From Burkholderiales bacterium (GTDB lineage: Bacteria; Pseudomonadota; Gammaproteobacteria; Burkholderiales; Burkholderiaceae_C), in contig JBBQYL010000001.1 of the NCBI GenBank assembly GCA_038208735.1, forward strand, positions 489-64,488: a stretch of 64,000 nt of DNA, written 5' to 3'. A program made the position numbers and the translations under genes. The notes under the pieces are model-generated. The model had not been told where the DNA came from, ran no database searches, and saw nothing but the letters and a program-made list of their open reading frames with translations. How positions within the stretch are numbered: the stretch's first letter is position 1; each line of letters opens with the position of its first letter. Shown here one piece after another: positions 6,182 to 20,513 of the stretch.

Positions 6182-8164
6182 GTGACCCCGACCGCCTACG
6201 AACGCCACCTCGAACGCGCCGTTGCGCTGCTGTCGCGCCGCGTGCGCAGCGGCGCCGCAGGCCTCAGCGGCGAGATCGCCGCCGCCCCCGTGACCAACGC
6301 CGCGTTGCGCGCGCTGCGCGGCGAGGTCGCCTCGACGCTTGCGCGCCGCCACGCCCAGTTCGCGGCCGCGTTTGCCGACGCGTTGAAGCAGTCGGCCATC
6401 GAGTTCACGCATCCGCCCGCGGCGAAGCCGCCCGGCCAGTGGCTGGACCTGGGCGCATTCGAGATCATGGACGAGTCGCGCATCCAGGAGGAGATCGAGG
6501 TGGCCCAGGTCGTGCGGATCCTCGACGAGGACTGCACGGTGGAACTGCGCCGGCTGATCAAGTTCGAGGGCGCGTTGCGCCGCTCCGAGGGCGTGCGCGT
6601 GGCCGCGTCGCCCATCGGTCCGCCGTGCCTGGCGCGCGCGCTGTGGGCCGGTTCGGACGGCCTGGGCCTGGCGCCGCCGGAGCGCGCCGAGCTCGTGCGC
6701 TGCGTCGCGCGCTGGCTGGCCCCGCGTTTGGGCGAGCTCCTTGCCGCCGTGCGCCAGGCCGGCTTCGCGGACGCCTCGCACCTGGAGGCTACCGACCGCG
6801 GTGGCGAAGGCGTCGAAGAACGGTCCACGGTCCACCCACCCACCGGCTTCGACGTCACGCGACCCGGCGCGCTGTTCGAGCTGATGGACCTGGACGAGCA
6901 GCGCCCCGTGTTCGCGGCCTCCACGGCGCACACGCCCCTCGACCGCATTCCCGACACCCTGCCGATGCCGCTCGACGGCGACGACGCGCGCATTCCGGGG
7001 CTGATCCACAGCCATCGCGAGGAACTCACCGCGCTGCGCGACGCCAGCAGTTCCCGGCTGGCGGCGGCGCTCATCGGCCACCTGTTCGTACAGATCGTGG
7101 CCGACGCCGCGCTGTCGGACGCGGCGCGCGTCTGGCTCGCCCGCGTGCAGCCGCTGGTGGTGCAGCTGGCCACGCACGACGCCACGCTGCTGCAGTCGCA
7201 CCGACATCCGGTGTGGACGCTGGTCAACCGCGTGGCCACCACGATGAAGGCCGACAAGGGGCCGCCGGCGCCGGAGTTCGAGCAGTGGCTGTCCGACACG
7301 CTCGCGCAGGTGACGGCCGACCCGTCGACCGCGTCGTTCGAGGCGGCGGGCGAACGGCTGGGGCAGTGGCAGCGCCAGCAGGCGCAGCGCCGGCTGACGT
7401 CGGTGGAGGGTGCGCTCGACCTGCTGCGCCGCAACGCCTCGCTGGAGGAATTGGTGGAGCAGGCCAAGGCGCGGCTGCAGCGCAAGCTCGACTCGGCCAG
7501 GCCGCCGTCGCAGACGCGACGCTTCATCCTGACGCTGTGGGCGCTGGTGGTCGCGCAGGAGTGGACGACCCTGGGGCCCGAGCTGCGTCGCAACTCGCCG
7601 GCCATGGACACCGCCGTCGACATGATCTGGTCCACCGACAAGTCGCGCTCGCGCGCCGACGCGTCCACGTTGGTGGCGATGATTCCTGAACTGGTGGAGC
7701 GCGTGACGGCCGGCATGACCACCGTCAAGCTGTCCGACGCGATGCGCAAGGCCTGGCTCGACCAGATCGCCGCCATCCACCTGCACGCCATGCGCCGCCC
7801 TGCCGCCGAAGAGCCCGCCGCGGGGCCGGTCACCGTCGACCTGGAACTGGACGACGAACTCCCGCCGCCGCCGCCGCCACCGCCTCCGGCGCCGGTCCGC
7901 GCGTCGGACGCGTCGTCCCCGGTCGCGTCGCTGCAGATCGGCGACACCGTCTCGATGCAATTGCACGGCGACTGGCAGGACGTGCAACTGCTGTGGATGA
8001 GCGACAACGGCTACTTCCTGCTGTTCGCCGGCAACGGCGACGGCTCGCACAGCTTCACGCGCAAGGCGCTCGAGAAGATGGCCGCCCAGGGTCTGCTGCG
8101 CACCGCCGATTCCGGCTCGGCGCTGCAGCGCGCCAGCGACGAGCTCATTCGCCGCCGGCACTAG
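6182..8164 (+). CDS. DUF1631-like helical protein with poly-Pro linker and small C-terminal beta domain
   Basis: 660 aa; RVQPLVVQLATHDATLLQSHRHPVWTLVNRVA and LQIGDTVSMQLHGDWQDVQLLWMSDNGYFLLF resemble DUF1631 members. Confidence 0.65.
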   Translation: MTPTAYERHLERAVALLSRRVRSGAAGLSGEIAAAPVTNAALRALRGEVASTLARRHAQFAAAFADALKQSAIEFTHPPAAKPPGQWLDLGAFEIMDESRIQEEIEVAQVVRILDEDCTVELRRLIKFEGALRRSEGVRVAASPIGPPCLARALWAGSDGLGLAPPERAELVRCVARWLAPRLGELLAAVRQAGFADASHLEATDRGGEGVEERSTVHPPTGFDVTRPGALFELMDLDEQRPVFAASTAHTPLDRIPDTLPMPLDGDDARIPGLIHSHREELTALRDASSSRLAAALIGHLFVQIVADAALSDAARVWLARVQPLVVQLATHDATLLQSHRHPVWTLVNRVATTMKADKGPPAPEFEQWLSDTLAQVTADPSTASFEAAGERLGQWQRQQAQRRLTSVEGALDLLRRNASLEELVEQAKARLQRKLDSARPPSQTRRFILTLWALVVAQEWTTLGPELRRNSPAMDTAVDMIWSTDKSRSRADASTLVAMIPELVERVTAGMTTVKLSDAMRKAWLDQIAAIHLHAMRRPAAEEPAAGPVTVDLELDDELPPPPPPPPPAPVRASDASSPVASLQIGDTVSMQLHGDWQDVQLLWMSDNGYFLLFAGNGDGSHSFTRKALEKMAAQGLLRTADSGSALQRASDELIRRRH

Positions 8165-8171
8165 GATCTGT

Positions 8172-8906
8172 TCAGGCCTCGGGCGCCTGCAGCACAGGCC
8201 CCGGCCCGGCCGGCCGGCGCAGCAGCGCCAGGTGCAGCGTCTGCGTCAGCAGTTCGAGCGGATACACGGCATCCATCAGGTCGAACACCATGCGCCACTC
8301 CGCGAGCGTGCCGCGCCACCAGCCGATCTTCTCGGTCTTGCGCGACTGGGTGACGTCGCGCCAGTTCGCCACGGCTACCGGCAGGCGGGCGGCGATGATG
8401 CGCTTGTTCATGAACACCTCGATGCCGAAGCGGGGCAGGGCGTGGATCTCGTGCAGCACGTCGGCCAGCAGGCGCCGGTCCACCACGCGCTCGCCCGACA
8501 CGAAGTCGATGCCGGCCCAGCGGAAGATGGCCAGGCTGTTGCGGCGCAGGCTCATGCTGACGGCGGCGCGGCCAGACAGCACCGGCAGCGCCAGGGCGTC
8601 GAGATCCTGGGCGCGCAGGCCCTTCAGGTCGGCGTCCAGCAGCATCAGCAGGTCGTGGCGCGCGGCGGCGACGCCGGTGGCGATGGCCTGGCTCTTGCCG
8701 CGGTTGCGCGCATGCGTGAGAAGGCGCACGCGCGGGTGACGCGACACCACTGCGGCCGTGTCGTCGGTCGACCCGTCGTCGACGACGATCACCTCGGCCA
8801 CCAGCGGGTGCGCTGCGGCCACCTCCAGCACCGCGCCGATGCGCGGGCCCTCGTTGAAGGCGCAGACGATGCAGGTGATGCGGGGCGTTGAGGCGAAGTG
8901 ATCCAT
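8172..8906 (-). CDS. Glycosyltransferase family 2 (polyprenol-phosphate/GpgS-like)
   Basis: IVCAFNEGPRI, VIVVDDGSTDDT, NRGKSQA, LLMLLDADL. Confidence 0.9.
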   Translation of the reverse strand: MDHFASTPRITCIVCAFNEGPRIGAVLEVAAAHPLVAEVIVVDDGSTDDTAAVVSRHPRVRLLTHARNRGKSQAIATGVAAARHDLLMLLDADLKGLRAQDLDALALPVLSGRAAVSMSLRRNSLAIFRWAGIDFVSGERVVDRRLLADVLHEIHALPRFGIEVFMNKRIIAARLPVAVANWRDVTQSRKTEKIGWWRGTLAEWRMVFDLMDAVYPLELLTQTLHLALLRRPAGPGPVLQAPEA

Positions 8907-9015
8907 GCGCGGCCATCGAGTGGGGACTTGCTCACTATCGACGCGCTTCGTGACAGCGTCACGGCATCGGCATCGGCATCGGCGATCGCCTGTCGGAGGC
9001 GTGTCCGTGTCGCGC

Positions 9016-9055
9016 CTGTCGTCGCGGCGTCATCGAGATGTCATGACCCCTTCAC
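9016..9055 (+). promoter_or_regulatory. PHO-box-like array (four half-sites at 11-bp spacing) upstream of lplT
   Basis: CTGTCGT(9016), GCGTCAT(9027), ATGTCAT(9038), CCTTCAC(9049), compared with the PhoB consensus CTGTCAT-N4-CTGTCAC. Confidence 0.55.
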
Positions 9056-9100
9056 GCGCAGGCCCGAGGCTCGCAAGCTGTCTCCATCCTGTCTGCCGCG

Positions 9101-10354
9101 ATGCCCGCCTCCTTCCTGCTGCTGCTCGCGGCCCAGTTCATGTCGGCGCTGGCGGACAACGCGCTGCTCATCGTCACCATCGACCTGCTGCAACAGCGGG
9201 CGATGCCCGCGTGGCTCGCGCCGATGCTCAAGGGGGCCTTCATCGCGGCCTATGTGGTGCTCGCGCCGTTCGTCGGGCCGCTGGCCGATTCGCTTCCCAA
9301 GGCGCGGCTGATGGCGTGGATGAACGCGGTCAAGATCGGCGGCGTCGCGGCACTGATCTTCGGCGTGCATCCGGTGGCGGCCTTCCTGGTGGTGGGACTC
9401 GGCGCCGCGGCCTATGCGCCGGCCAAGTACGGCCTGGCCACCGAGCTCGTGCGGCCCGACCAGCTGGTGGCGGCCAACGCCTGGATCGAGACGACAGCGG
9501 TGTGCGCGGTGCTGCTGGGCACCGGCCTGGGCGGATTCCTGGTCAGTCCGTGGCTGCTGGCGCACGCCGGCCACGGCGTGGCCGATGCGTTCACTCCCGT
9601 GCTGCCGTCGCTGGCGATCCTGCTGGGCGTCTACCTGCTCGCCGGCATCCTCAACCTGGGCGTGCCTGACAGCGGCGTGCGCCACGCCATCGCGTCCCTG
9701 CATCCCCGCGCGATGGTGCGCGACTTCGTGCAGTCCAACCGCAGGCTGTGGCGCGATCCCGAGGGCGGGCTGTCGCTGGCCGTCACCACCATCTTCTGGG
9801 GCGTGGGCGCCACGCTGCAGTTCGCCGTGCTGCGCTGGGCGCGCGAGAGCCTGCACCTGAGCCTGGACCGGGCCGCGTTCGTGCAGGCCGCGGTGGCGGT
9901 GGGCGTGATCGGCGGCGCCGTGGCGGCGGGTCGGTGGGTGCCGCTGGCGCACGCCAGGCGCATGCTGCATGCGGGCGTGCTGTTCGGCGTGCTGATGATC
10001 GCGGTGCCCTTCATCACCGACCTGGCCCTGGCCGTGGCGGTACTGATCGGGGTGGGCGCCGTGGGCGGGCTGATGGTGGTGCCGCTGAACGCGCTGCTGC
10101 AGGATCGCGGCAACGCGCTGCTGAGCGCGGGCCGGTCGATCGCGGTGCAGGGTGGCAACGAGAACGCCAGCGTGCTGGCATGCCTGGGCGTGTACTCCAC
10201 GCTCGTGGCGTTCGACGTGCCGCTGGCCGCGCTGATGGCCGGCCTGGGCGTGTGCGTGGCGGCCGCGTTGACCGCGATCATCCTGCGCCAACGCGCGCGT
10301 GAGCGCCGCGCGCTCCTTCAGACCGACGAGTGGCGTGCGGGCGTGAACGCGTAG
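9101..10354 (+). CDS. lplT: Lysophospholipid transporter LplT (MFS)
   Basis: AQFMSALADNALL, AYAPAKYGL-TEL, VVPLNALLQDRG, GRSIAVQGGNEN. Confidence 0.8.
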   Translation: MPASFLLLLAAQFMSALADNALLIVTIDLLQQRAMPAWLAPMLKGAFIAAYVVLAPFVGPLADSLPKARLMAWMNAVKIGGVAALIFGVHPVAAFLVVGLGAAAYAPAKYGLATELVRPDQLVAANAWIETTAVCAVLLGTGLGGFLVSPWLLAHAGHGVADAFTPVLPSLAILLGVYLLAGILNLGVPDSGVRHAIASLHPRAMVRDFVQSNRRLWRDPEGGLSLAVTTIFWGVGATLQFAVLRWARESLHLSLDRAAFVQAAVAVGVIGGAVAAGRWVPLAHARRMLHAGVLFGVLMIAVPFITDLALAVAVLIGVGAVGGLMVVPLNALLQDRGNALLSAGRSIAVQGGNENASVLACLGVYSTLVAFDVPLAALMAGLGVCVAAALTAIILRQRARERRALLQTDEWRAGVNA

Positions 10355-11529
10355 CCGGCCACGGGCTCGACGCGGCGCATCACGCCGGCCATCACGCCTT
10401 CCACCTGCGCGGCGATGCTGTCCCAATCGAGCGGCAGCACGCTGGTGCGGGCGCGGGCGCCCAGCACGCGGCAGTTGCCGAGGTCGCTGGCGGTGCGTGC
10501 CGCCGTCGTCACGAACGCGGCGTCGTCTTCGTAGGGCACGAGGGCGCCGTTCTCGCCGTGGCGGATCAGGCGTCCCGCGGCGGCGTAGTCGAACGCGACC
10601 ACGGCCAGGCCGCTGGCCATGGCCTCGGTGGTGACGTTGCCGAAGGTCTCGGTGACGCTCGGAAACAGGAACAGGTCGGCCGACGCGTAGTGCGCCGCGA
10701 GGTCGTCGCCGCCGCGCTGGCCGGCGAAGATCGCGTCGGGGCAGTGCGCCTGCAGCTCTCTGCGCATCGGGCCGTCGCCCACCAGCACGAGGCGGGCGCG
10801 CGGCTGCTGGCGGCGGATCGCGTCGAACGCCGTCACCAGCGTCCTCAGGTTCTTCTCGGGCGCCAGCCGGCCTACGCAGGTGACCACCAGGTCGTTCGGC
10901 GCCGCGCCCCAGCGCGCGCGCAGCGCCTCGCTGCGGTGGGCGACGTCGAAGCGGCGCACGTCCACGCCGCGCGCCACCTGCGTCAGGTCGCGGAAGCCGG
11001 CGGCCTGCAGGTCGTCGTGCAGCGCCTGCGACGGCACCATCGTGCACTGTGTCGCGTTGTGGAAGCGGCGCAGGTAGGCCATGATCGGCCGGCGCAGGAA
11101 GCCGAAGCCGTAGTGCTTGCTGTAGGCGTGGAAGTTGGTGCGGAAGTCGGAGCATACCGGCAGGCCCAGCGCCCGGGCGGCCAGCAGCGCCGAGCGGCCC
11201 AGCGGGCCTTCGGTGGCGATGTGCACCACGTCGGGCCGCTGCTCGCGCCACAGCTTCACCAGCGCGCCCTTGCACGGCAGGCCCATGCGCAGGCCGGCGT
11301 AGTTGGGAATCGGCACGCCGCGCACCAGCACGTCGCCGCGGGCGTCGCCGGAGGCCGTGGGGGCCGAGTCGGCGGGCTGGCGCGGTCGCACCACCTGCAC
11401 CGTGTGGTCGCGCTCGCGCAGGGCCTGCACGAGGCGCGCGATGGTCATCGACACGCCGTTGACCTCGGGCGGATAGGTCTCCGTCACGCAGGCGATTCGC
11501 AGGGGTCTGTGGCCGATGTCTGTTCTCAC
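10318..11529 (-). CDS. GT4 (GT-B) glycosyltransferase, Agt/MgtA-like glycolipid synthase candidate
   Basis: RIACVTETYPPEVNGV, VVHIATEGPLG, FLFPSVTETFGNVTTEAMASGLAVV. GTG at 11529 has a GGAGG RBS, so it is preferred over the ORF-track TTG at 11583. Confidence 0.9.
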   Translation of the reverse strand: MRTDIGHRPLRIACVTETYPPEVNGVSMTIARLVQALRERDHTVQVVRPRQPADSAPTASGDARGDVLVRGVPIPNYAGLRMGLPCKGALVKLWREQRPDVVHIATEGPLGRSALLAARALGLPVCSDFRTNFHAYSKHYGFGFLRRPIMAYLRRFHNATQCTMVPSQALHDDLQAAGFRDLTQVARGVDVRRFDVAHRSEALRARWGAAPNDLVVTCVGRLAPEKNLRTLVTAFDAIRRQQPRARLVLVGDGPMRRELQAHCPDAIFAGQRGGDDLAAHYASADLFLFPSVTETFGNVTTEAMASGLAVVAFDYAAAGRLIRHGENGALVPYEDDAAFVTTAARTASDLGNCRVLGARARTSVLPLDWDSIAAQVEGVMAGVMRRVEPVAGYAFTPARHSSV

Positions 11530-11579
11530 GGAAGGCGCCTCCGAATCGTTGCGGTCGCGGTCGATGATGACCCGTGCTC

Positions 11580-11597
11580 GCAACAGATCGATGACAG
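11580..11597 (-). promoter_or_regulatory. Weak PHO-box-like site upstream of the GT4 gene
   Basis: Minus strand reads CTGTCAT-CGAT-CTGTTGC. Confidence 0.35.
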
Positions 11598-11645
11598 TTC
11601 CGAGTCAATTCATGCCGTCGGCGGACACGGCGCTTTCATATTTGG

Positions 11646-11663
11646 CGGTCACCATCCTGTCAC
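11646..11663 (+). promoter_or_regulatory. PHO-box-like site upstream of the Mpo1-like/aminotransferase/psd operon
   Basis: CGGTCAC-CATC-CTGTCAC, 11-bp spacing, 45 nt before the start codon. Confidence 0.5.
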
Positions 11664-11707
11664 GCCGCGCCGGTCGTCGCCGCCGGCGAACTCCCCAGAG
11701 GAACCCC

Positions 11708-12322
11708 GTGAACAACTTCATGCAAACCCTGCGCACGCTGCGGTGGGACGATCACCGCTTCTATCACCACAGCACCATCAACCAGAGCCTGCACTTCATC
11801 AGCGCGATCACGTTCTGCATCGCCTATGCGCTGCTGTTCGTCGACCCGGCCATCGCCGCCATCCTGGCGTGGACCGTATCGATGACCACGCGCCAGGCCG
11901 GCCACTTCTTCTTCGAGCCGCGCGGCTACGACGAGGTGAACCAGGTCTCCGACGCGTACAAGGAAGCGGTCAAGGCCGGCTACAACATCCGACGCAAGAT
12001 CGTGTTGATGGCGATCTGGGTGGCGATTCCCGCCACGCTGTGGTTCGCCCCGTCGCTGGGTGGCCTGATCCAGCCGCACACCGACCTGCGCGGCTTCGTG
12101 CACGACGTGGGCATCGCCTGGCTGTCGCTGGGCGCCGCGGGCCTGGCGGTGCGCGTGCTCCAGCTGTGCATCACACGCAACGCGACCGAAGGCCTGGCCT
12201 GGGGCTTCAAGATCATCACGGATCCGTTCATGGACATCGCGCTGTACCACAAGGCCCCGCTGAAGCTGGTGCGCGGCCAGATGATCTCGTCGGTGTCGTC
12301 GCCGAGCGCGACCGCGCACTGA
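11708..12322 (+). CDS. Mpo1/DUF962-like integral membrane protein
   Basis: HRFYHHSTINQSLH and QAGHFFFEP His motifs plus TM helices. GAGGA RBS before GTG 11708. Confidence 0.7.
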   Translation: MNNFMQTLRTLRWDDHRFYHHSTINQSLHFISAITFCIAYALLFVDPAIAAILAWTVSMTTRQAGHFFFEPRGYDEVNQVSDAYKEAVKAGYNIRRKIVLMAIWVAIPATLWFAPSLGGLIQPHTDLRGFVHDVGIAWLSLGAAGLAVRVLQLCITRNATEGLAWGFKIITDPFMDIALYHKAPLKLVRGQMISSVSSPSATAH

Positions 12323-12350
12323 GAAATCGACAACAGCCCGTCGCGCCCCC

Positions 12351-14009
12351 ATGGAACCCACCACCTTCGCCCTCTCCGCGTTGATGCTCGCCGCGTTGGC
12401 CGTCATGGCCCCGCGCGCCAAGCGTCGTCTCGAACTCTCGCGAGCCAAGCACGCCTCGCTGACCGGCCATTCGAAGATGGCCAAGCGAATCGCGGGCCTG
12501 CTGCCCGGCTACGCCTACGACGAGGTGCGCTTCTTCGGCTCGGACGGCGCCCCGGCGGAGTTCCAGCAGCGGCGCCGCGCCGGCTTCGAGAAGCTGGCCA
12601 CGCTGTATCGCGAACGCTTTCCGAAGAGCGCCGCGCTGACGGCCCAGGCCAGCACCGGCATCTCCGACCTGCAGTTCACCGGCAGCTACCGTGTTCCGTA
12701 CCAGTACAGCCCGTATCTGCGCCAGCACCTGAAGACGGGCAGCTTCCTGCAGTCGTCCAGCGGCGTCACCGTCCAGGACCTGGACGGCAACCGCTTCCAC
12801 GACCTCACCGGCTCGTACGGCGTCAACCTGTTCGGCTATGACTTCTACAAGGAGTGCATCGCCGAGGGCGCGCGTCGCGTCGCCGAACTGGGTCCCGTGC
12901 TGGGCGCGTATCACCCGGTGCTGGTGGACAACGTGCGGCGCCTCCAGCGCATCTCCGGGCTGGACGAGGTGTCGTTCCACATGTCCGGCACCGAGGCCGT
13001 GATGCAGGCCGTGCGCCTGGCGCGCTATCACACGAGGAAGAAGTACCTGGTGCGCTTCTGCGGCGCCTATCACGGCTGGTGGGAGGACGTGCAGCCCGGA
13101 CCCGGCAATCCGCTGCCCCCGCGCGAGACGTACACGCTGGAGGAGATGAAGGCCGGGACGCTGAAGGTGTTGCGCACTCGCCAGGACATCGCCTGCGTGC
13201 TGGTCAACCCGCTGCAGGCGCTGCATCCCAACGCCGCGGCGCCGGGTGACTCGTCGCTGGTAGATAGCGCGCGCCGCGCGAAGTTCGACCGTGCCGCGTA
13301 CACCGAGTGGCTGAAGCAATTGCGACAGGTCTGCACCGAACGCGGCATCGTGCTGATCTTCGACGAGATATTCGTCGGCTTCCGGCTGGCGCCCGGCGGC
13401 GCGCAGGAGTACTTCGGCGTCCAGGCCGACATGGTCACCTACGGCAAGTCGCTGGGTGGCGGGTTGCCGGTGGGCGTGGTGTGCGGCAGGCGCGAGCTGA
13501 TGAAGCGCTTCCGCGAGGATCGCCCTGCCGACATCTGCTTCGCCCGCGGCACCTTCAACTCGCACCCGTACGTGATGGGCGCGATGAACGTGTTCCTCGA
13601 GCGCCTCGAGGGGGACGACGTCAAGGCCATGTACGACGGCGTCGACCAGCGCTGGAACGATCGAACGGCGCGCTTCAACGAGCGCCTGGAGGCGGCCGGC
13701 GTGCCGGTGCGCGCGGCCAACATCCAGTCGATCTGGATGGTGATGTACGAGCAGCCGTCGCGCTACAACTGGATGCTGCAGTTCTACCTTCGCGCCCACG
13801 GGCTGGCGCTCAGCTGGGTGGGGACAGGCCGGCTGATCTTCAGCCTGAACTACAGCGATGCCGACTTCGACGCGGTGATCGACCGCTTCGTCGCCGCGGC
13901 CGCCGAGATGCAAGGCGACGGCTGGTGGTGGAACGATCCCGCGCAGAGCAACCGCACCATCCGGCGCAGCCTGCTGCGCGAAATGCTGCATGAGCGGTTC
14001 AGCAGCTGA
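12351..14009 (+). CDS. Class-III PLP aminotransferase (GSA aminomutase-like) with N-terminal membrane anchor
   Basis: SGTEAVMQAVRLAR, FCGAYHGWWE, LIFDEIFVGFRL, TYGKSLGGGLPVG (PLP lysine). Hydrophobic N-terminus FALSALMLAALAVM. Confidence 0.9.
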   Translation: MEPTTFALSALMLAALAVMAPRAKRRLELSRAKHASLTGHSKMAKRIAGLLPGYAYDEVRFFGSDGAPAEFQQRRRAGFEKLATLYRERFPKSAALTAQASTGISDLQFTGSYRVPYQYSPYLRQHLKTGSFLQSSSGVTVQDLDGNRFHDLTGSYGVNLFGYDFYKECIAEGARRVAELGPVLGAYHPVLVDNVRRLQRISGLDEVSFHMSGTEAVMQAVRLARYHTRKKYLVRFCGAYHGWWEDVQPGPGNPLPPRETYTLEEMKAGTLKVLRTRQDIACVLVNPLQALHPNAAAPGDSSLVDSARRAKFDRAAYTEWLKQLRQVCTERGIVLIFDEIFVGFRLAPGGAQEYFGVQADMVTYGKSLGGGLPVGVVCGRRELMKRFREDRPADICFARGTFNSHPYVMGAMNVFLERLEGDDVKAMYDGVDQRWNDRTARFNERLEAAGVPVRAANIQSIWMVMYEQPSRYNWMLQFYLRAHGLALSWVGTGRLIFSLNYSDADFDAVIDRFVAAAAEMQGDGWWWNDPAQSNRTIRRSLLREMLHERFSS

Positions 14010-14027
14010 GGACCGCATCGAAAGCTC

Positions 14028-14939
14028 ATGAAAAAACATTTCCGCCGCCTGCTTGCACAGGAAGACCTGAACTTCCTGCTCACCAATCGCGTGCCCCGCA
14101 TCGCATTGACGCACTTCATGGGCAGGTTCAGCAAGATCCGCAACCCGCTCGTCAGCAAGGCGTCGATCGGCCTGTGGAAGCTGTTCACCGACCTCGACCT
14201 GAGCGACGCCCGCCACCGCGAGTTTCGCAGCATGCACGACTGCTTCACGCGCGAGCTGATGCCGGGCGCCCGCGCGATCGATCCCGATCCCGGCGTGCTG
14301 ACGTCGCCCTGCGACGCCATCGTCGGCGCCTGCGGGCCGGTGGCGGGAAGCACCGTGTTCCAGGCCAAGGGCTTTCCGTATCGGTTGGAGGAGCTGTTCG
14401 GGCCGGGCACCGACACCACGCCGTTCCGCGACGGCCGCTTCATCACGCTGCGGCTCACGTCGGCGATGTATCACCGCTTCCACGCGCCGCACGACTGCGA
14501 CGTGAGCCACGTCAGCTACCTCAGCGGCGACACCTGGAACGTGAACCCGATCGCGCTGAAGCGGGTGGAGAAGCTGTTCTGCCGCAACGAGCGCGCCGTG
14601 CTGAGCGCGCGCCTGCGCCGAGGCAACTTTCCCATTGCCATCGTGCCGGTGGCCGCCATCCTCGTGGCCAGCATCCGGCTGCGCTTCACCGACGTGCTGC
14701 TGCACCTGAAGTACCGCGGCCCCAACGAGATCCCGGTGCAGGCCCGCTTCTGCAAGGGCGAGGAGATGGGCGGCTTCCAGCACGGCTCCACCATCCTCCT
14801 GTTCGTGCCGCCGGGCTTCGAGTTCGTCGACGGCATCGACACCGGCGCGCGCATCCGCATGGGCCAGGCGCTGATGCACCTGCCCCCATTGCCGATCGCG
14901 GCCGATTCGTCGCGCGCGCTGGAACAGGTTCCCGCGTGA
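14028..14939 (+). CDS. psd: Phosphatidylserine decarboxylase family proenzyme (pyruvoyl-dependent)
   Basis: FRSMHDCFTREL, LTSPCDA, MYHRFHAP, ERAV, GEEMGGFQHGSTI (GST self-cleavage motif). Confidence 0.88.
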   Translation: MKKHFRRLLAQEDLNFLLTNRVPRIALTHFMGRFSKIRNPLVSKASIGLWKLFTDLDLSDARHREFRSMHDCFTRELMPGARAIDPDPGVLTSPCDAIVGACGPVAGSTVFQAKGFPYRLEELFGPGTDTTPFRDGRFITLRLTSAMYHRFHAPHDCDVSHVSYLSGDTWNVNPIALKRVEKLFCRNERAVLSARLRRGNFPIAIVPVAAILVASIRLRFTDVLLHLKYRGPNEIPVQARFCKGEEMGGFQHGSTILLFVPPGFEFVDGIDTGARIRMGQALMHLPPLPIAADSSRALEQVPA

Positions 14940-15883
14940 CGCGTGCGGGAGCGGCCGCGCTCGCGCGCCGCGCGGGCGTGGCGCTCGCGTGCGTCGGGGT
15001 CGCCGTCGCGCTCGACTTCGTGCTGCGCGACCTCCGCCTGGCCGAGCTGCGCGCGGCGCTGGTGGATCAGCCGCCGATGCGCATCGTGGCGTGCCTCGCG
15101 CTCACCGCGGCGAGCTTCTGCTGCCTGGCGCTGTACGACCTGGTGGGCGTGCGCGTGGCGGCGCCCGGCCGGGTGCGTGCGCGCCTGGCCTTGCTGGCGG
15201 GCGCTTCGAGCGCTGCCATCGCCAACACGGTGGGCTTCCACGCGGTGTCGGGTTCGGCGGTGCGCGCGCACTTGTACCTGCCCGCCGGGCTGGGCGGTGG
15301 CGAGGTGGCGCGCGTCGTGTCGACGTCGTGGCTGTCGCTCGTGGCCGGCAACATGACGATGCTGGCGGGCGCCGAGCTGTTCCAGGCCGCCACCGGCGCC
15401 GATCCGGCCTGGCATGCGGCGCTGGGTGTCGCGCTGGAAGGGCTCCTGGTGACGTGGTTGTGGTGGCTGTCGCGCGGCCGGCGCGAGATCACGATGGGGC
15501 GGTGGCACCTGCCGATGCCATCGGCGTCGCTCGCGCTGCTGTTGATGGCGCTCGGCGCGGTCGAGAGCGGCACCGCCGTGGGCGCGCTGTACGTGCTGCT
15601 GCCGCCCGACCTGGCGCCGCCGTTCGACGTGTTCGCCGTGGGGTGCATCGCGGCCGTGATCCTGGGCGTGGTGTCGCACGCGCCGGGCGGGCTGGGCGTG
15701 TTCGAGGCGGGCATGACGGCGATCCTCTCCGGCCGCGGGCGGCCCGACCTGCTGGCCGCGCTGCTGCTGTATCGCCTGCTCTACAACCTGCTGCCGTTCG
15801 CGTGCGCCGTACTGGCGCTGGGCCTGCGTTCGGGCTGGCGGGCTTTGGTTGGCGTCACAAGGGCAGCGGCGCGTAACGCGTGA
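14936..15883 (+). CDS. Lysylphosphatidylglycerol-synthase TM-domain (MprF/UPF0104-like) membrane protein
   Basis: GTG overlaps the psd stop. ALYDLVG, ANTVGFHAVSGSAVRAHLY, SHAPGGLGVFEAG, LLLYRLLYNLLPF. No acyltransferase domain follows. Confidence 0.75.
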   Translation: MTRAGAAALARRAGVALACVGVAVALDFVLRDLRLAELRAALVDQPPMRIVACLALTAASFCCLALYDLVGVRVAAPGRVRARLALLAGASSAAIANTVGFHAVSGSAVRAHLYLPAGLGGGEVARVVSTSWLSLVAGNMTMLAGAELFQAATGADPAWHAALGVALEGLLVTWLWWLSRGRREITMGRWHLPMPSASLALLLMALGAVESGTAVGALYVLLPPDLAPPFDVFAVGCIAAVILGVVSHAPGGLGVFEAGMTAILSGRGRPDLLAALLLYRLLYNLLPFACAVLALGLRSGWRALVGVTRAAARNA

Positions 15884-15930
15884 GGCTGGGAGCCTGCCGG
15901 CGGGCGTGCCGGGGCGGCCCTCGCGCCGCC

Positions 15931-15958
15931 AAAAAAAACGGCCCCGCGAACGGGGCCG
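15931..15958 (-). terminator. Rho-independent terminator of the small-protein gene
   Basis: Minus strand: cggccccg-ttcg-cggggccg followed by T8. Confidence 0.8.
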
Positions 15959-15992
15959 AAACAGGACTTACAGAAATTCGGTCTGCGGTGGT

Positions 15993-16184
15993 TCAGGCAC
16001 CCGTGATGCGATGGCCCACGATGGTCACGACCCGCATTTCGGTCGCGGCCGGTTGCGTGACCTGCCCCGCGGCGGCGACGCGGTACTGGTGGGCGGCCAG
16101 GGCGTTGGTGGCCAGGAACATCGAGCCCGTCAGCAGGGCGGCGAGGGCGGCGGGGGCGATGCGGGCGGCGAAGGTGTTGGTCAT
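15993..16184 (-). CDS. Small exported hypothetical protein (63 aa)
   Basis: GGAG RBS, signal-like N-terminus ending NALA, own terminator. Confidence 0.6.
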   Translation of the reverse strand: MTNTFAARIAPAALAALLTGSMFLATNALAAHQYRVAAAGQVTQPAATEMRVVTIVGHRITGA

Positions 16185-16431
16185 GGTGAGCTCCTGGAGG
16201 GTTGCGCTGCGTTGTTCGATGGATGGACTTTAGGCAGCGCCGCTCCAGGCTGCGAGCGGCGTGCGACGACGCGCGTCGAGCGGCGGACGAACTGCAAGCC
16301 AGCGCGACGAACCGAATCCCAAGCCGCGCCGAACGGCCGATTTCGAGGCGAAATGACCCCGCGGCGCCGCCTGCGCATTGACACCGGTCCGCGCGCCCGA
16401 GCCACCGGCCGGCCGGCTGCAGAATGGCTGC

Positions 16432-17076
16432 ATGACCGAATCCACCTCCCTCCCCGCCGGCCTGTTCTCCCACGTCGACGACGGCGCGCTGCGCTGCCAG
16501 TGGTGCCGCGCCACCCCCGAGTACCGGCGCTACCACGACGAGGAATGGGGCTTCCCCGTCACCGACGAGCGCCGCCTGTTCGAGAAGATCTGCCTGGAGG
16601 GCTTCCAGGCCGGCCTGAGCTGGCTCACCATCCTCAACAAGCGCGAGGCGTTCCGCAAGGGCTTCGCCAACTTCGAGGCCGAGAAGGTGGTGCGCTTCGG
16701 CCAGGCCGACGTCGAGCGGCTGGTGGCCGACGCGGGCATCGTGCGCCACCGCGGCAAGATCGAGTCCACCATCAACTACGCCAAGCGGGTGCTGGAGCTG
16801 CGCGAGGAGTTCGGCTCGCTGGCCGCCTACGCCTGGCGCTACGAGCCGGCGGTCGACACCCGGCCGCACAAGCCCGAGACCGGCGTGGTGCTGGGGCCGT
16901 CGGCCGAGGCCGTGGCGATGTCCAAGGACCTGAAGAAGCGGGGCTGGAGCTTCGTGGGGCCCACCACCGTCTATGCGTTCATGCAGGCGATGGGGCTCGT
17001 CAACGATCACTACGAAGGATGCCATGCGCGCGAGGCGGCGTTCAAGGCGCGCAAGAAGCTCAAGAAGCCGGTTTGA
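16432..17076 (+). CDS. tag: DNA-3-methyladenine glycosylase I
   Basis: RCQWC, YHDEEWG, FEKICLEGFQAGLSWLTILNKRE, IVRHRGKI, FVGPTTVYAFMQAMGLVNDH..C. Confidence 0.95.
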   Translation: MTESTSLPAGLFSHVDDGALRCQWCRATPEYRRYHDEEWGFPVTDERRLFEKICLEGFQAGLSWLTILNKREAFRKGFANFEAEKVVRFGQADVERLVADAGIVRHRGKIESTINYAKRVLELREEFGSLAAYAWRYEPAVDTRPHKPETGVVLGPSAEAVAMSKDLKKRGWSFVGPTTVYAFMQAMGLVNDHYEGCHAREAAFKARKKLKKPV

Positions 17077-17162
17077 ACGACGCTTGCCCGTCCGTTCGAG
17101 AAATGACCGAAGGCCTTCGCCTGGCGATCTTGAAGCAACTCAACCTGGAGCGAAAGGGCTGA
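17073..17162 (+). pseudogene. hicA: C-terminal remnant of a HicA-family toxin
   Basis: REMTEGLRLAILKQLNL resembles the HicA C-terminal helix and lies directly before hicB. The N-terminal GSH region is absent. Confidence 0.62.
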
Positions 17163-17166
17163 TCGA

Positions 17167-17583
17167 ATGTTGAACTACCCTGCTCGGCTGGCGCGGGACG
17201 GAGATGGTTTCATGGTGTCGTTTCCCGACATTCCCGAGGCGTTGAGCTTCGGAAGTTCTCGGGAGGAGGCGACGGCCATGGCCACGGACGCCCTGACGAC
17301 GGCCATGGATTTCTATTTCGAGGATGGGCGCGCTGTGCCCGAGCCCTCGGATGCCAGGCGCGGGCAAGTGCTGGTCGCGCTGCCTGCAAGCGTCAGCGCG
17401 AAGGTGCTGCTGCTCAACGAAATGATGCGCCAGGATGTGCGGCCAGCCGAGCTTGCACGTCGCCTGAACGTGCGCCCACAAGAGGTGACGCGCATCACGA
17501 CGCTGTCGCACCCGACCAAGATCGATACGATCTCGGATGCGCTTTCCGCGATGGGCAGGCGCCTCGAGCTGAGGCTCGCTTAG
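17167..17583 (+). CDS. hicB: HicB-family antitoxin with C-terminal HTH
   Basis: YPARLARDGDGFMVSFPDIPEALSFGSSREEA..MATDAL, KVLLLNEM, AELARRLNVRPQEVTRI...TKIDTI. Confidence 0.9.
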   Translation: MLNYPARLARDGDGFMVSFPDIPEALSFGSSREEATAMATDALTTAMDFYFEDGRAVPEPSDARRGQVLVALPASVSAKVLLLNEMMRQDVRPAELARRLNVRPQEVTRITTLSHPTKIDTISDALSAMGRRLELRLA

Positions 17584-17632: not shown

Positions 17633-18760
17633 TCAGTCCTTTCCACTCGCCCCCGCCCTCAACCGCTCCCGCGTCCGCGCCGGTGTATTCCCGAACCAGT
17701 CCCGACACGCCCGGTTGAACGAGCTCTGCTCCCGATACCCCAGCATGAAGGCCACGTCGGTGAGGTTCAGCCGCGAGTCGCGCAGCAGCTCCTCGGCCAG
17801 CGCCTGGCGCGCGGCCTCGTGCACCGCCTGGAAGTTGGTGCCCGCCTCGGCCAGCTTGCGCTGCAGCGTGCGTGTGCTCACGGCGAGCGCGGCTGCCACG
17901 TCGTCCACGCGGGCGCGGTCGTTGGCCAGCTGGGCCGCCACCTCGCGGCGCACGTCGGTGACGATGCGCGGCTCGGCGGTCTCGCGCAGGCGCGAGGCCA
18001 GCAGCGCGTCGGCGTGGCGTTGCAGCACCTTCAGCATGCTGCCGTCGGCATTGGGCACCGGGCGGTCCAGCAGCGCGGCGTCGAACCGGCCGTAGGCGGC
18101 GGGCACGCCGTAGATCACGTTCGGGCCGAACACCTGCGCATGCGCCGCGCGGATGGCCGCGTCCGGTTCGGGGTAGGGCAATCCGATCTCGTGCACCGGC
18201 AGCCGCTCGTGGGCCAGCCAGCTCACGAACGTCAGGATGCCGGCCAGCACGCTGTCGCCCAGGTGGCGCGCCTGTGCCGGCGTGCAGGCGTCGAGCCAGG
18301 GCGTGTCCCAGTAGTAGGTGGCGACGCCGTGGCGCTCGTCCAGGCGCGAGCGGCCCAGGTCGTGGGCCAGGCCCTCGTAGCGGCGTGTCTGCTCGAAGGC
18401 GCCGCGCAGCGTGGTGCAGGCACACACCACCAGGCCGTAGAACGGGTAGGTGGACAGCCGGGCGTGCAGTCCAACGTGGAGTCCGAACACGAGGTCGGTG
18501 GCGAGGCGGTGGCCGGCCCCCAGCAGCGCGAGGTACTCGGCCACGCTCAGGCTGTCGCGCGCGGGGTCGAGCGTGTCGGCGGGCCAGCCCAGCTCGGCGC
18601 ACAGCGCGTCGGGCGCCACGCCCTGCGCCTGCGCGGTGGCCACGGCGGTCTGTGCGTAGGCCATCGCCACGCGAGCGTCGGCCGCCGGCGGGATGGGGCA
18701 GGGCGCGTCCGGCGATGCGGCGGCCGCGAGGGTGGGAGAGGGCGCCGGCGGGACTGGCAT
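17633..18760 (-). CDS. AraC-family transcriptional regulator
   Basis: C-terminal double HTH (VSTRTLQRKLAEAG...VAFMLGYREQSSFNRACRDWFGNTP). Divergent from the AGPS-like operon. Confidence 0.92.
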   Translation of the reverse strand: MPVPPAPSPTLAAAASPDAPCPIPPAADARVAMAYAQTAVATAQAQGVAPDALCAELGWPADTLDPARDSLSVAEYLALLGAGHRLATDLVFGLHVGLHARLSTYPFYGLVVCACTTLRGAFEQTRRYEGLAHDLGRSRLDERHGVATYYWDTPWLDACTPAQARHLGDSVLAGILTFVSWLAHERLPVHEIGLPYPEPDAAIRAAHAQVFGPNVIYGVPAAYGRFDAALLDRPVPNADGSMLKVLQRHADALLASRLRETAEPRIVTDVRREVAAQLANDRARVDDVAAALAVSTRTLQRKLAEAGTNFQAVHEAARQALAEELLRDSRLNLTDVAFMLGYREQSSFNRACRDWFGNTPARTRERLRAGASGKD

Positions 18761-18896
18761 GTTGTGGCAACTCGCCTGTCGGCGAAAGACAAGCCGCCGC
18801 GGCACGCGGGGCGCACCATCGCGGCGTCGCGTCGCGGGCGTCCGAGAACTGATCGCCCGCCGACGCCTGTCGACCTGAAAAACGAGTATAGCCACG

Positions 18897-20513
18897 ATGA
18901 CCGCTGAACGACGCTGGAACGGCTGGGGCGACGCCCGGGTGCAGGAAGCGCTCAAGCCCGAGGCGCTGGCCTTCCTGGCGCAGGCCATCGGCGCCGGAGC
19001 GCCCCGCCCCGACGCCGCGTTCGCGGCCGTGCTGGCCCAGGTGGAGGCGCAACCCTCGCGCCTGCCGCCGCATCCGCTGGTGGACGCCGGCGCCGAGACG
19101 CGCCTGCGCGCCAGCTTCGGCCAGTCCATGCACGACTGGCTGCGCCTGCGCTTCGGCGTGCACGGCCGCGTCACCGACGGCGTGGCGTTTCCCGCCAGCG
19201 CGGCCGAGGTGCGCACGCTGCTCACGTGGGCCCGCGAACACGGCGTGCAGGTGCTGCCTTCCGGCGGGGCCACCAGCGTCGCCGGCCACCTCACGCCGGT
19301 GGGCGCGGCGCCGGTGCTCACGCTCAGCATGGGTCGCATGATGCGGCTGCTGGATCTCGACACGGCGTCGCAGCTCGCCCGCTTCGAAGCCGGCGTGGCC
19401 GGGCCCGACCTCGAGGCTCAGCTGCGCGCCCACGGTTTCACGCTGGGACACTTTCCGCAGAGCTTCGAGCTGTCGACGCTGGGCGGCTGGATCGTCACGC
19501 GGTCGTCGGGCCAGCAGTCGGCGCGCTATGGCCGCATCGAGCAGCTGTTCGCCGGCGGCACGCTGCAGACGCCCGAGGGCGAATGGACGCTGCCCACCTT
19601 CCCGGCGTCGGCCGCCGGGCCCGACCTGCGCGAATGGGTGCTGGGCTCCGAAGGCCGGCTGGGCGTGTTGACCGAGGCCAGCGTGCGCGTCACGCGCGCG
19701 CCGGTCGCGGAGCGCTTCGTGGGGATCTTCTTCCCCGACTGGGCCAGCGGCCTGGCGGCGGTGCGTCGCATGGCCCAGGCCAGGCTGGGGCTGTCGATGC
19801 TGCGCCTGGCCAATCCTGCCGAGACCTTCACCACGCTCAGCATGGCCGGCCACGCCGGCACCATGGCGTGGCTGGAACGCTACCTGTCCCTGCGCGGCGC
19901 GGGCGAGGGCAAGTGCCTTCTGTTTGCCGGGTTCACCGGCGACAGCGCCTCGGCCGTGCGCGCGTTGCAGCGCGCCGCGGCGGCGATCTGGCGCGAGCAC
20001 GGCGGCGTGAGCACCGGCACGCTGCTGGGCCGCAAGTGGGCCGAGCGCCGCTTCGCCGGCGTCTACCTGCGCAACGCGCTGTGGGACGCCGGCTACGCGG
20101 TCGACACGATGGAGACGGCGTGCGACTGGCCGCGCGTCGATGCGATGGTGCGGGCGCTCGAGGCCGCCGGCCGAAGCGCGCTCGCGCAACACGGCGAGCG
20201 CACGCACTGCTACACGCACCTGTCGCACGTGTACGCGCAGGGTTCCAGCGTGTACAGCACCTTCGTCTACCGCATCGGCGCCGGCTACGACGAGGCGCTG
20301 GCGCGCTGGCGCTCGCTCAAGACCGCCGTCGGCGACGCCATCGTCGCGCAGGGCGGCACCATCACCCACCAGCACGGCGTGGGCAAGGACCACGCGCGTT
20401 GGCTGGTGGCCGAGAAGGGCGCGACGGGCATGTCGGCCATCGCCGCGATGGTGCGCGAGTTCGACCCGCATGGCGTGATGGCACGCGGCAACCTGCTGGG
20501 GGACGAGCAATGA
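18897..20513 (+). CDS. FAD-binding oxidoreductase, alkyl-DHAP synthase (AGPS)-like
   Basis: MTAERRWNGWG, PSGGATSVAGHL, GHFPQSFELSTLGGWIVTRSSGQQSARYG, HLSHVY, TITHQHGVG. Confidence 0.9.
   Translation: MTAERRWNGWGDARVQEALKPEALAFLAQAIGAGAPRPDAAFAAVLAQVEAQPSRLPPHPLVDAGAETRLRASFGQSMHDWLRLRFGVHGRVTDGVAFPASAAEVRTLLTWAREHGVQVLPSGGATSVAGHLTPVGAAPVLTLSMGRMMRLLDLDTASQLARFEAGVAGPDLEAQLRAHGFTLGHFPQSFELSTLGGWIVTRSSGQQSARYGRIEQLFAGGTLQTPEGEWTLPTFPASAAGPDLREWVLGSEGRLGVLTEASVRVTRAPVAERFVGIFFPDWASGLAAVRRMAQARLGLSMLRLANPAETFTTLSMAGHAGTMAWLERYLSLRGAGEGKCLLFAGFTGDSASAVRALQRAAAAIWREHGGVSTGTLLGRKWAERRFAGVYLRNALWDAGYAVDTMETACDWPRVDAMVRALEAAGRSALAQHGERTHCYTHLSHVYAQGSSVYSTFVYRIGAGYDEALARWRSLKTAVGDAIVAQGGTITHQHGVGKDHARWLVAEKGATGMSAIAAMVREFDPHGVMARGNLLGDEQ

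Follow-up and report, generated by a model that had tools for sequence, protein, structure and literature searches.

The 64,000 nucleotide stretch of Burkholderiales DNA analysed here (the window; positions 489 to 64,488 of contig JBBQYL010000001.1 in assembly GCA_038208735.1) carries a gene, at 12351..14009 on the forward strand, that encodes a 552 amino acid (aa) membrane-anchored class III pyridoxal phosphate (PLP) aminotransferase. The protein resembles HemL, the glutamate-1-semialdehyde (GSA) aminomutase, but it is not HemL; it is most likely a stand-alone transaminase belonging to the GSA-aminomutase/AMT-like branch of the class III PLP enzymes. The gene is the second in an operon of four, which encode in order an Mpo1/DUF962-like protein, the aminotransferase, a paralogue of phosphatidylserine decarboxylase (PSD) and an MprF flippase domain, and which are separated by 28, 18 and -4 bp respectively. 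It would seem fairly probable that this membrane-tethered transaminase, acting as part of an operon that is probably controlled by PhoB, aminates an intermediate in the synthesis of a membrane lipid.

The reading frame is free of stop codons over all 552 residues and has a third-position GC content (GC3) of 0.92, a coding-type bias in a genome of 70% GC. The translation contains a single Pfam domain, Aminotran_3 (PF00202), which scores 112 bits against a gathering threshold of 30.5, and the class III membership indicated by this score is also seen in the fold. The AlphaFold2 model, with a predicted local distance difference test (pLDDT) score of 88.4 and a predicted template-modelling (pTM) score of 0.88, consists of a helix from residue 3 to 32, a helical N-domain to around residue 126, a class III core and a C-terminal helix at 534-551; a Foldseek search with this model returned at least 500 PDB matches, with class III enzymes throughout the matches listed. 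An initial annotation of this DNA had described a protein of this length with a GSA-aminomutase-like core, a description that stands given the uninterrupted frame, the PF00202 core and a partial match to the hemL model TIGR00713.

The residues that characterise class III enzymes are all in place. The lysine that forms the Schiff base with PLP is K366 (codon 13446..13448, forward strand; motif YGKSLGGG), which aligns with the lysine of both HemL and AMT domains, and the aspartate that contacts the ring nitrogen is D338 (codon 13362-13364, forward strand); both are invariant across the 40 sequences of the family alignments. Closer to the C-terminus R494 (GTGR; codon 13830..13832, forward strand) was placed by a MAFFT alignment with HemLs and with the GabT and ArgD-like enzymes of the same genome, in which it falls opposite the carboxylate-binding arginine of GabT (IRVLVPL) and of the ArgD-like enzyme (VRLVPPL). 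R494 is nearly invariant in the family, with a lysine in one distant member, and by this alignment it is the C-terminal arginine with which class III enzymes bind an alpha-carboxylate. Its presence points to an ordinary two-substrate transaminase and, taken together with the kinship to AMT domains described below, suggests an enzyme that would act on a lipophilic carbonyl rather than an intramolecular aminomutase.

Several independent features separate this family from HemL. TIGR00713 scores the protein at 168.6 bits, far below the curated equivalog cut-off of 527.3. A tree was built from 34 family members, 8 canonical HemLs, the other class III enzymes of the genome and one AMT domain of a polyketide synthase (PKS); it comes from a quick search and its long branches were flagged, and in it all 34 family members fall into a single clade on a long stem (SH-aLRT, a likelihood-ratio branch support, of 100), the HemLs form another (99), and the PKS AMT domain is the sister of the family (99). 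The N-terminal motif GGVNSPVRAF, of which the Ser and Arg are reported to bind the carboxylate of the substrate in the Synechococcus GSA aminomutase structure, is found in 8/8 canonical HemLs and is absent from the family, where SDLQFTxxYRVP(F/Y)Q(F/Y) occupies its place. The gating-loop region is 13 residues shorter in the family across the HemL segment GSGLxTFGxPxSAGVP, and a 12-residue insert of HemL has been lost, a loss that is common to the AMT domain. Furthermore the family has an arginine (R494) at the position where HemL has the glutamate of (F/Y)EAGF, a residue which is reported to exclude alpha-carboxylate co-substrates from HemL (Hennig et al. 1997).

Many near-identical database entries carry the JGI name glutamate-1-semialdehyde 2,1-aminomutase, the mislabelling that the initial annotation had foreseen. 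Metabolic reconstructions can be misled by it, for instance when a draft assembly that lacks the real hemL, such as this one, is credited with all of the C5 pathway. The possibility that the name is correct, in that the protein is a true membrane-tethered HemL isoenzyme which makes 5-aminolevulinate and replaces a canonical hemL missing from this genome, has some points in its favour: hemL-type models are the best NCBIfam matches to the protein, and glutamyl-tRNA reductase is present in the assembly (372 bits) whereas canonical hemL was not found in the 437-contig draft, where the best match reaches 197 bits and a tblastn search with the HemL of a congener gave no more than 33% identity. It is nonetheless extremely unlikely, given the model score, the separate and fully supported clade, the lack of GGVNSPVRAF, the shortened gating region and the exchange of Arg for Glu. 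In its own genome two other proteins, GabT and a PRK07046-type transaminase, are better hemL-like matches, which leaves the aminotransferase in third place. In 10/12 congeners an orthologue of the aminotransferase gene is accompanied by a full-length canonical hemL (561-573 bits), and the missing hemL of the draft is best read as an assembly gap, since in a comparison with 19 kb of congener G002 (C21) synteny breaks at the end of draft contig C224, 2.4 kb short of the hemL of the congener; around 12 kb of that region, including hemL, is without a counterpart in the 99%-complete draft. The distribution of the gene is also patchy, unlike that of an essential haem gene, with orthologues in 34/301 genomes and 22/145 genera of the order and always one match per genome, which is not the pattern of a sole hemL or of a near-universal tetrapyrrole enzyme of the lineage.

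The initial view of a HemL-like protein that is not HemL is therefore upheld by the agreement between model score, phylogeny, missing HemL sequence features and coexistence with hemL in congeners. No hem genes were found among the neighbours scanned, over approximately 3.6-22.3 kb, as had been noted. The separate canonical hemL for which a search had been proposed does exist in the congeners, but not in the draft itself, where its expected site lies past the end of a contig.

The core resembles HemL, although the nearest solved relative turns out to be the AMT domain of MycA from mycosubtilin synthase (PDB 6KFM, 6KFU), which is slightly ahead of HemL. Structure 6KFM is the best PDB match both by sequence (157.8 bits) and by fold (Foldseek E value 3e-29, target-normalised TM-score (TMt) 0.83, 27% identity), and the next solved relatives are HemLs and beta-transaminases. 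HemL (TIGR00713; PDB 2GSA, 5I92) shares the fold and the PLP site, with Lys in xGKxxGGG and Asp in DE(V/I), at 23-26% identity and a TMt of ~0.8; beyond the residue and loop differences given above, the family differs from it in its anchor and in its non-hem gene context. The MycA AMT domain transfers an amine from glutamine to a beta-ketothioester bound to acyl carrier protein (ACP) (PMC3870968), and both it and the aminotransferase described here, which are alike in lacking the 12-residue insert, would aminate a lipophilic carbonyl that is held by a carrier or by the membrane. There are clear differences: the present enzyme is free-standing and outside any megasynthase, its anchor, its 100 aa helical N-domain and a family-specific insert of ~22 residues recognised in the alignment are all missing from AMT domains, and R494 has no counterpart in the AMT domain.

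The N-terminus of the protein is unlike that of either relative. Residues 4-20 (TTFALSALMLAALAVMA; codons at 12360..12410, forward strand) have a Kyte-Doolittle mean over 17 residues of 2.04 and lie within the helix modelled at 3-32, with a net charge of -1 ahead of the hydrophobic segment and of +5 across the 15 residues that follow (PRAKRRLELSRAKHA), and the stretch APRAKRR follows the hydrophobic helix. Over the family the sequence of the first 20 residues varies, whilst the hydrophobicity and the pattern of trailing charge are kept. By the positive-inside rule we infer an anchor with its N-terminus out and its C-terminus in, which would place the catalytic domain on the cytoplasmic side. 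An anchor is also more likely here than a cleavable Sec signal peptide, as the positive n-region is missing and the +5 cluster falls after the helix.

The anchor is followed by a helical, family-specific extension (codons 26-130 at 12426..12740, forward strand), which is recognised from family alignments and from a pLDDT of 89-98 over residues 51-100, and which lies outside the hemL model. TIGR00713 covers only residues 130-469 (model positions 31-360), so that ~100 residues at the N-terminus are extra. Invariant motifs in the extension are RLxLSxAKHxSLxGH, followed by D65, R75 and SD(L/M)xFTxxYRVP(F/Y); a search of the ESM Atlas with the N-terminal 130 residues alone detected no relatives, all matches being below 0.9. 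The length of the aminotransferase is matched in homologues at 78-95% identity, and representatives at 32-54% identity retain the extension as well as the hydrophobic start; the start codon is therefore placed essentially correctly, and we see in the feature neither chance nor an artefact of start codon choice. Both the hydrophobic helix with its basic stretch and the ~100 aa extension, as first described, are thus borne out. Some distant family members have additional hydrophobic segments at the N-terminus. Three distant members, P0133 (1189 aa), P0137 (872 aa) and P0134 (726 aa), have 200-640 additional N-terminal residues, in P0133 with a weak match to glycosyltransferase family 2 (GT2); these parts may be further fusions and potential hints to the pathway.

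The first gene of the operon (11720..12322, forward strand) encodes a polytopic membrane protein of 200 aa, which is assigned to the Mpo1/DUF962-like proteins from a weak match to PF06127, from alignment, from its presence at most related loci and from fusions; H12, H16, H25, H62 and E66 are invariant in the alignment. The Mpo1 protein of yeast is an Fe2+-dependent 2-hydroxy-fatty-acid dioxygenase (PMC10398889). A complex prediction for the aminotransferase with the Mpo1-like protein gave a score of 0.00, which counts neither for nor against contact between the two. The third gene (14028..14939, forward strand) encodes a PSD paralogue of 303 aa with an HGST self-cleavage motif, which scores 177 bits to PF02666 and 148.7 to TIGR00163 (cut-off 111.75), and F(E/Q)HGST is found in 58/64 orthologues of this module PSD; the housekeeping psd, with canonical LGST, is on a different contig (C52). 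A third gene of the PSD family, at C77:11750-12412, has FGGS in place of LGST and lies within an open frame of 774 aa. The last gene of the operon (14936..15883, forward strand) encodes a membrane protein that matches NF033480 at 161.5 bits over model positions 10-301 of 841, and so is an MprF homologue that comprises only the flippase domain and lacks the aminoacyl-transfer domain; its GTG start overlaps the stop codon of the PSD gene (GTGA), an arrangement of translational coupling. Divergent from the operon is a gene (10318..11583, reverse strand) for a lipid-type glycosyltransferase of family 4 (GT4), which by Pfam and NCBIfam is similar to GlcNAc-PG synthase and MGlcDAG synthase.

This association is conserved well beyond the source genus. 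In the 80 loci compared, which are the best 80 of at least 597 related stretches in species-representative genomes (59-77% identity) and which span Beta-, Alpha- and Gammaproteobacteria, Polyangia and, from the Acidobacteriota, Vicinamibacteria, the aminotransferase gene is adjacent to the PSD paralogue in 79, to the Mpo1-like gene in 75, to the GT4 gene in 64 and to lplT in 15. The aminotransferase, PSD and Mpo1-like genes form a conserved triad, and in four representatives of 50%-identity clusters (P0129, P0181, P0198 and P0194) the aminotransferase is fused to a C-terminal Mpo1-like domain. Other recurrent neighbours are an S-adenosylmethionine (SAM) methyltransferase (20 loci), a PlcP-like metallophosphoesterase (18) and an OmpR-type regulator (11), with Ugd (7), OlsB-like (6) and MprF-TM-like (5) genes being less frequent.

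The orientation of the genes differs between the source genus and the rest. At 80/80 loci the aminotransferase gene lies on the other strand from its PSD and Mpo1-like partners, reading away from PSD and towards the Mpo1-like gene, and raw sequence from another genus shows this layout too; in the source genus it is collinear with both. The idea that the opposite-strand loci are mis-oriented by artefact was rejected, as the open reading frame is continuous into both flanks, the coordinates of the records agree and the raw sequence has the identical layout. Relative to these loci the aminotransferase gene of the source genus has undergone a single-gene inversion, which puts all four genes into one operon behind one Pho-box promoter; the inversion removes the spacer between the PSD and aminotransferase genes, which carries Pho-box-like sites elsewhere.

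Sites that resemble the Pho box of PhoB-regulated promoters are concentrated at this operon. With a scan threshold of two mismatches to the consensus, two of the three matches in the window are found in the 136-bp spacer between the GT4 and Mpo1-like genes, compared to an expectation of 1.02 per 64 kb. The first (11646..11663, forward strand; CGGTCACCATCCTGTCAC) has one mismatch and lies ~45 bp upstream of the operon, and the second (11580-11597, reverse strand) faces the GT4 gene. Similar sites occur in 22/37 spacers between Mpo1-like and GT4 genes and in 16/78 spacers between PSD and aminotransferase genes in other genomes, against a background of 0.072 per kb. Pho-box consensus matches are thus present in the promoter, as in PhoB-controlled lipid remodelling, and the operon is probably under the control of PhoB and apparently switched on by phosphate starvation. 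Several half-sites containing TGTC are also present at 8990-9050 upstream of lplT, none of which reached the two-mismatch threshold.

The stretch around the operon (window positions 8000-17200) is near-identical in metagenomes from glaciers, ice and sediments (~10 studies) and in one ice metatranscriptome, and over the pieces compared the source organism, or else a population with an identity to it above 99%, recurs in those metagenomes. Contigs from the ice RNA library bridge the Mpo1-like and aminotransferase genes (12190-12633), the aminotransferase and PSD genes (13938-14501) and the PSD and flippase genes (14472-15092), with 1-5 differences each, and the neighbouring GT2 and GT4 genes are likewise covered. 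The region just downstream, 15982-17200, is almost uncovered in the RNA library and is covered by two DNA runs. This coverage is supportive of expression of the operon.

The gene context bears directly on what the aminotransferase may act upon. As its closest sequence and structural relative is the MycA AMT domain and a PKS AMT domain is its sister in the tree, it might be expected to aminate an acyl chain in the way that the AMT domains of MycA, MxcL and zeamine synthesis do, converting a beta-keto or aldehyde carbon of an acyl-ACP or a free acyl chain into a beta-amino or amino-alkyl lipid chain. The shared absence of the 12-residue HemL insert, the ACP-bound beta-ketothioester on which MycA acts with glutamine as amine donor (PMC3870968) and the 2-hydroxy fatty acids on which yeast Mpo1 works (PMC10398889) would all be in keeping with this. 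We regard such a role as improbable, as no genes for PKS, nonribosomal peptide synthetase (NRPS) or ACP were found either in the neighbourhood within the window or among the recurrent neighbours of the 80 loci, from which acyl-ligase genes are also absent, and hence the enzyme is neither embedded in nor beside a megasynthase. Its constant partners are instead a head-group decarboxylase homologue, a flippase domain and a lipid-type glycosyltransferase, and its sequence is only 27% identical to the MycA AMT domain, from which a long stem branch separates it.

The lipid-linked substrate suggested by the initial annotation has a context that is strong, though short of proof, in the PSD paralogue, the MprF flippase, the Mpo1-like protein and its fusions to the aminotransferase, the GT4 and LplT genes and the conserved triad. 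That the substrate is a lipid, which lipid it would be, and in what direction and order the steps would run are matters of inference. In the proposed pathway the single N-terminal helix would hold the aminotransferase at the cytoplasmic face of the inner membrane. The Mpo1-like protein, as a putative metal-binding enzyme, would oxidise a group on a membrane-bound lipid to a carbonyl, the group being most likely the head group of the lipid made by the GT4 enzyme or of another phosphorus-sparing lipid. The transaminase would then move an amino group from soluble Glu, Gln or Ala onto the carbonyl by ping-pong chemistry between PLP and pyridoxamine phosphate, the PSD paralogue, a decarboxylase of the pyruvoyl type, would take off a carboxyl group, and the MprF-type flippase domain would carry the amine-bearing product to the outer leaflet, with the methyltransferase tailoring the amine in some lineages.

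A more specific version of this pathway can be put forward only tentatively. In it the triad would build an amino head group on a phosphorus-free lipid through oxidation, transamination and decarboxylation, and so produce a zwitterionic substitute for phosphatidylethanolamine (PE) or phosphatidylcholine (PC), to be flipped outward by the MprF-like protein. Two routes to the head group are candidates: a conversion of glycerate to serine and on to an ethanolamine-type group, which would mirror the soluble pathway of serine biosynthesis, or a route that aminates the glucuronosyl-diacylglycerol which GT4 and Ugd would provide, at a head group in its 4-keto-uronic (beta-keto acid) form.

The same genes could also be read in the catabolic direction, with the aminotransferase removing the amine of PE-type head groups supplied by the PSD paralogue so as to dismantle phospholipids during phosphate starvation, either by reverse transamination or by an elimination of the phospho-lyase type, as in ethanolamine-phosphate phospho-lyase. 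Transaminases are reversible, the context has the appearance of phosphate regulation with PlcP-like phospholipase genes adjacent in 18 loci, and the class III fold includes lyases that act on phosphoethanolamine. AGXT2L1 is named in PMC7377163 as a modulator of phospholipid metabolism. This reading is unlikely, however, as the MprF-type flippase of the operon and the SAM methyltransferases at 20 loci fit the export and tailoring of a product better, whole head groups are already removed by PlcP, and no specific similarity to a phospho-lyase family is seen among the 25 best NCBIfam matches listed.

A number of points weigh against the biosynthetic pathway as proposed. The Pho boxes are consensus matches and not binding data, and the RNA-library contigs neither prove a single transcript nor exclude the carry-over of DNA. 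The Mpo1-like protein scores 20.2 bits to PF06127, which is under the 24-bit cut-off. The aminotransferase gene is on the opposite strand in nearly all other genera, which makes the one-operon arrangement special to the source genus. A lipid with the predicted head group was not found, from any carrier, in the literature searched. Finally, the substrate of a pyruvoyl decarboxylase must be a free alpha-amino acid, whereas the nearest characterised relatives of the transaminase, the MycA AMT domain and beta-transaminases, make beta-amino compounds, and this conflict leaves the order of the steps chemically unsettled.

Bacteria starved of phosphate swap phospholipids for phosphorus-free lipids, of which glycolipids, ornithine lipids and betaine lipids are known. 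Among the closest known counterparts to the module is the PlcP-Agt system of lipid remodelling described in SAR11 and roseobacters (PMC4796936), Methylosinus (PMC9239053) and Pseudomonas aeruginosa (PMC8528852), with which it shares Pho-box-like promoters, a lipid-type GT4 gene beside it and, in some genomes, adjoining PlcP-like and Ugd genes; in the present genome a PlcP-like gene (74% identity) lies elsewhere. The known products of PlcP-Agt, monoglucosyldiacylglycerol (MGDG) and glucuronic acid diacylglycerol (GADG), differ in being free of nitrogen, and no aminotransferase, decarboxylase or aminomutase is mentioned in the phosphate-limitation paper on Methylosinus (PMC9239053) or in a Burkholderia proteomics study. 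The operon ends in a homologue of the flippase domain of MprF, the lysyl-phosphatidylglycerol synthase and flippase, but the aminoacyl-transfer domain is missing from the cluster. Similarly the PSD homologue, together with methyltransferases of PmtA/BtaB size at 20 loci, recalls the PssA-Psd-PmtA and BtaA-BtaB pathways, but the cluster is without both phosphatidylserine synthase and BtaA. Taken together the flippase domain, the PSD homologue and the methyltransferases suggest that an amine lipid, either zwitterionic or cationic, is moved to the outer leaflet, and its amine would come from transamination, which is used by none of these three systems. The literature searched contained no paper on the module and no assignment of function to the gene set.

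On the GT4 side of the operon the next gene is that for the lysophospholipid transporter LplT (9101..10354, forward strand), which matches NF008397 at 469 bits against a cut-off of 297, and beyond it is the GT2 gene. The spacer between GT2 and lplT contains a GCATCG tandem repeat (8962-8985), and a 12-base deletion here in one DNA metagenome run indicates that the length of the repeat is polymorphic in natural populations. A homologue of HicB-like antitoxins (17167-17583) and an AraC-family regulator (17633-19363) are encoded just 3' of tag (3-methyladenine glycosylase) and have no relation to the lipid module.

The aminotransferase is a handle on the whole pathway: nitrogen would enter the lipid through its reaction, and HemL is the name that it routinely, and wrongly, receives. 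What results is a concrete and testable gene set, made up of four genes and a promoter, with carriers that can be cultured, among them Hydrogenophaga flava NBRC 102514, Rubrivivax rivuli KYPY4, Ideonella lacteola and species of Bradyrhizobium, Methylobacterium and Sphingomonas. If an amino head group is indeed built on a phosphorus-free lipid, this would be an undescribed class of bacterial lipid as well as a new route to amine head groups, and the lipid would occur in many bacteria of freshwater, soil and glaciers. Carriers within the order include genomes of 1.6-2.1 Mb, and the retention of the genes in genomes of this size, their conservation and their coverage in RNA from ice suggest that the module is a missing piece in the membrane biology of bacteria that live in nutrient-poor waters, soils and ice.

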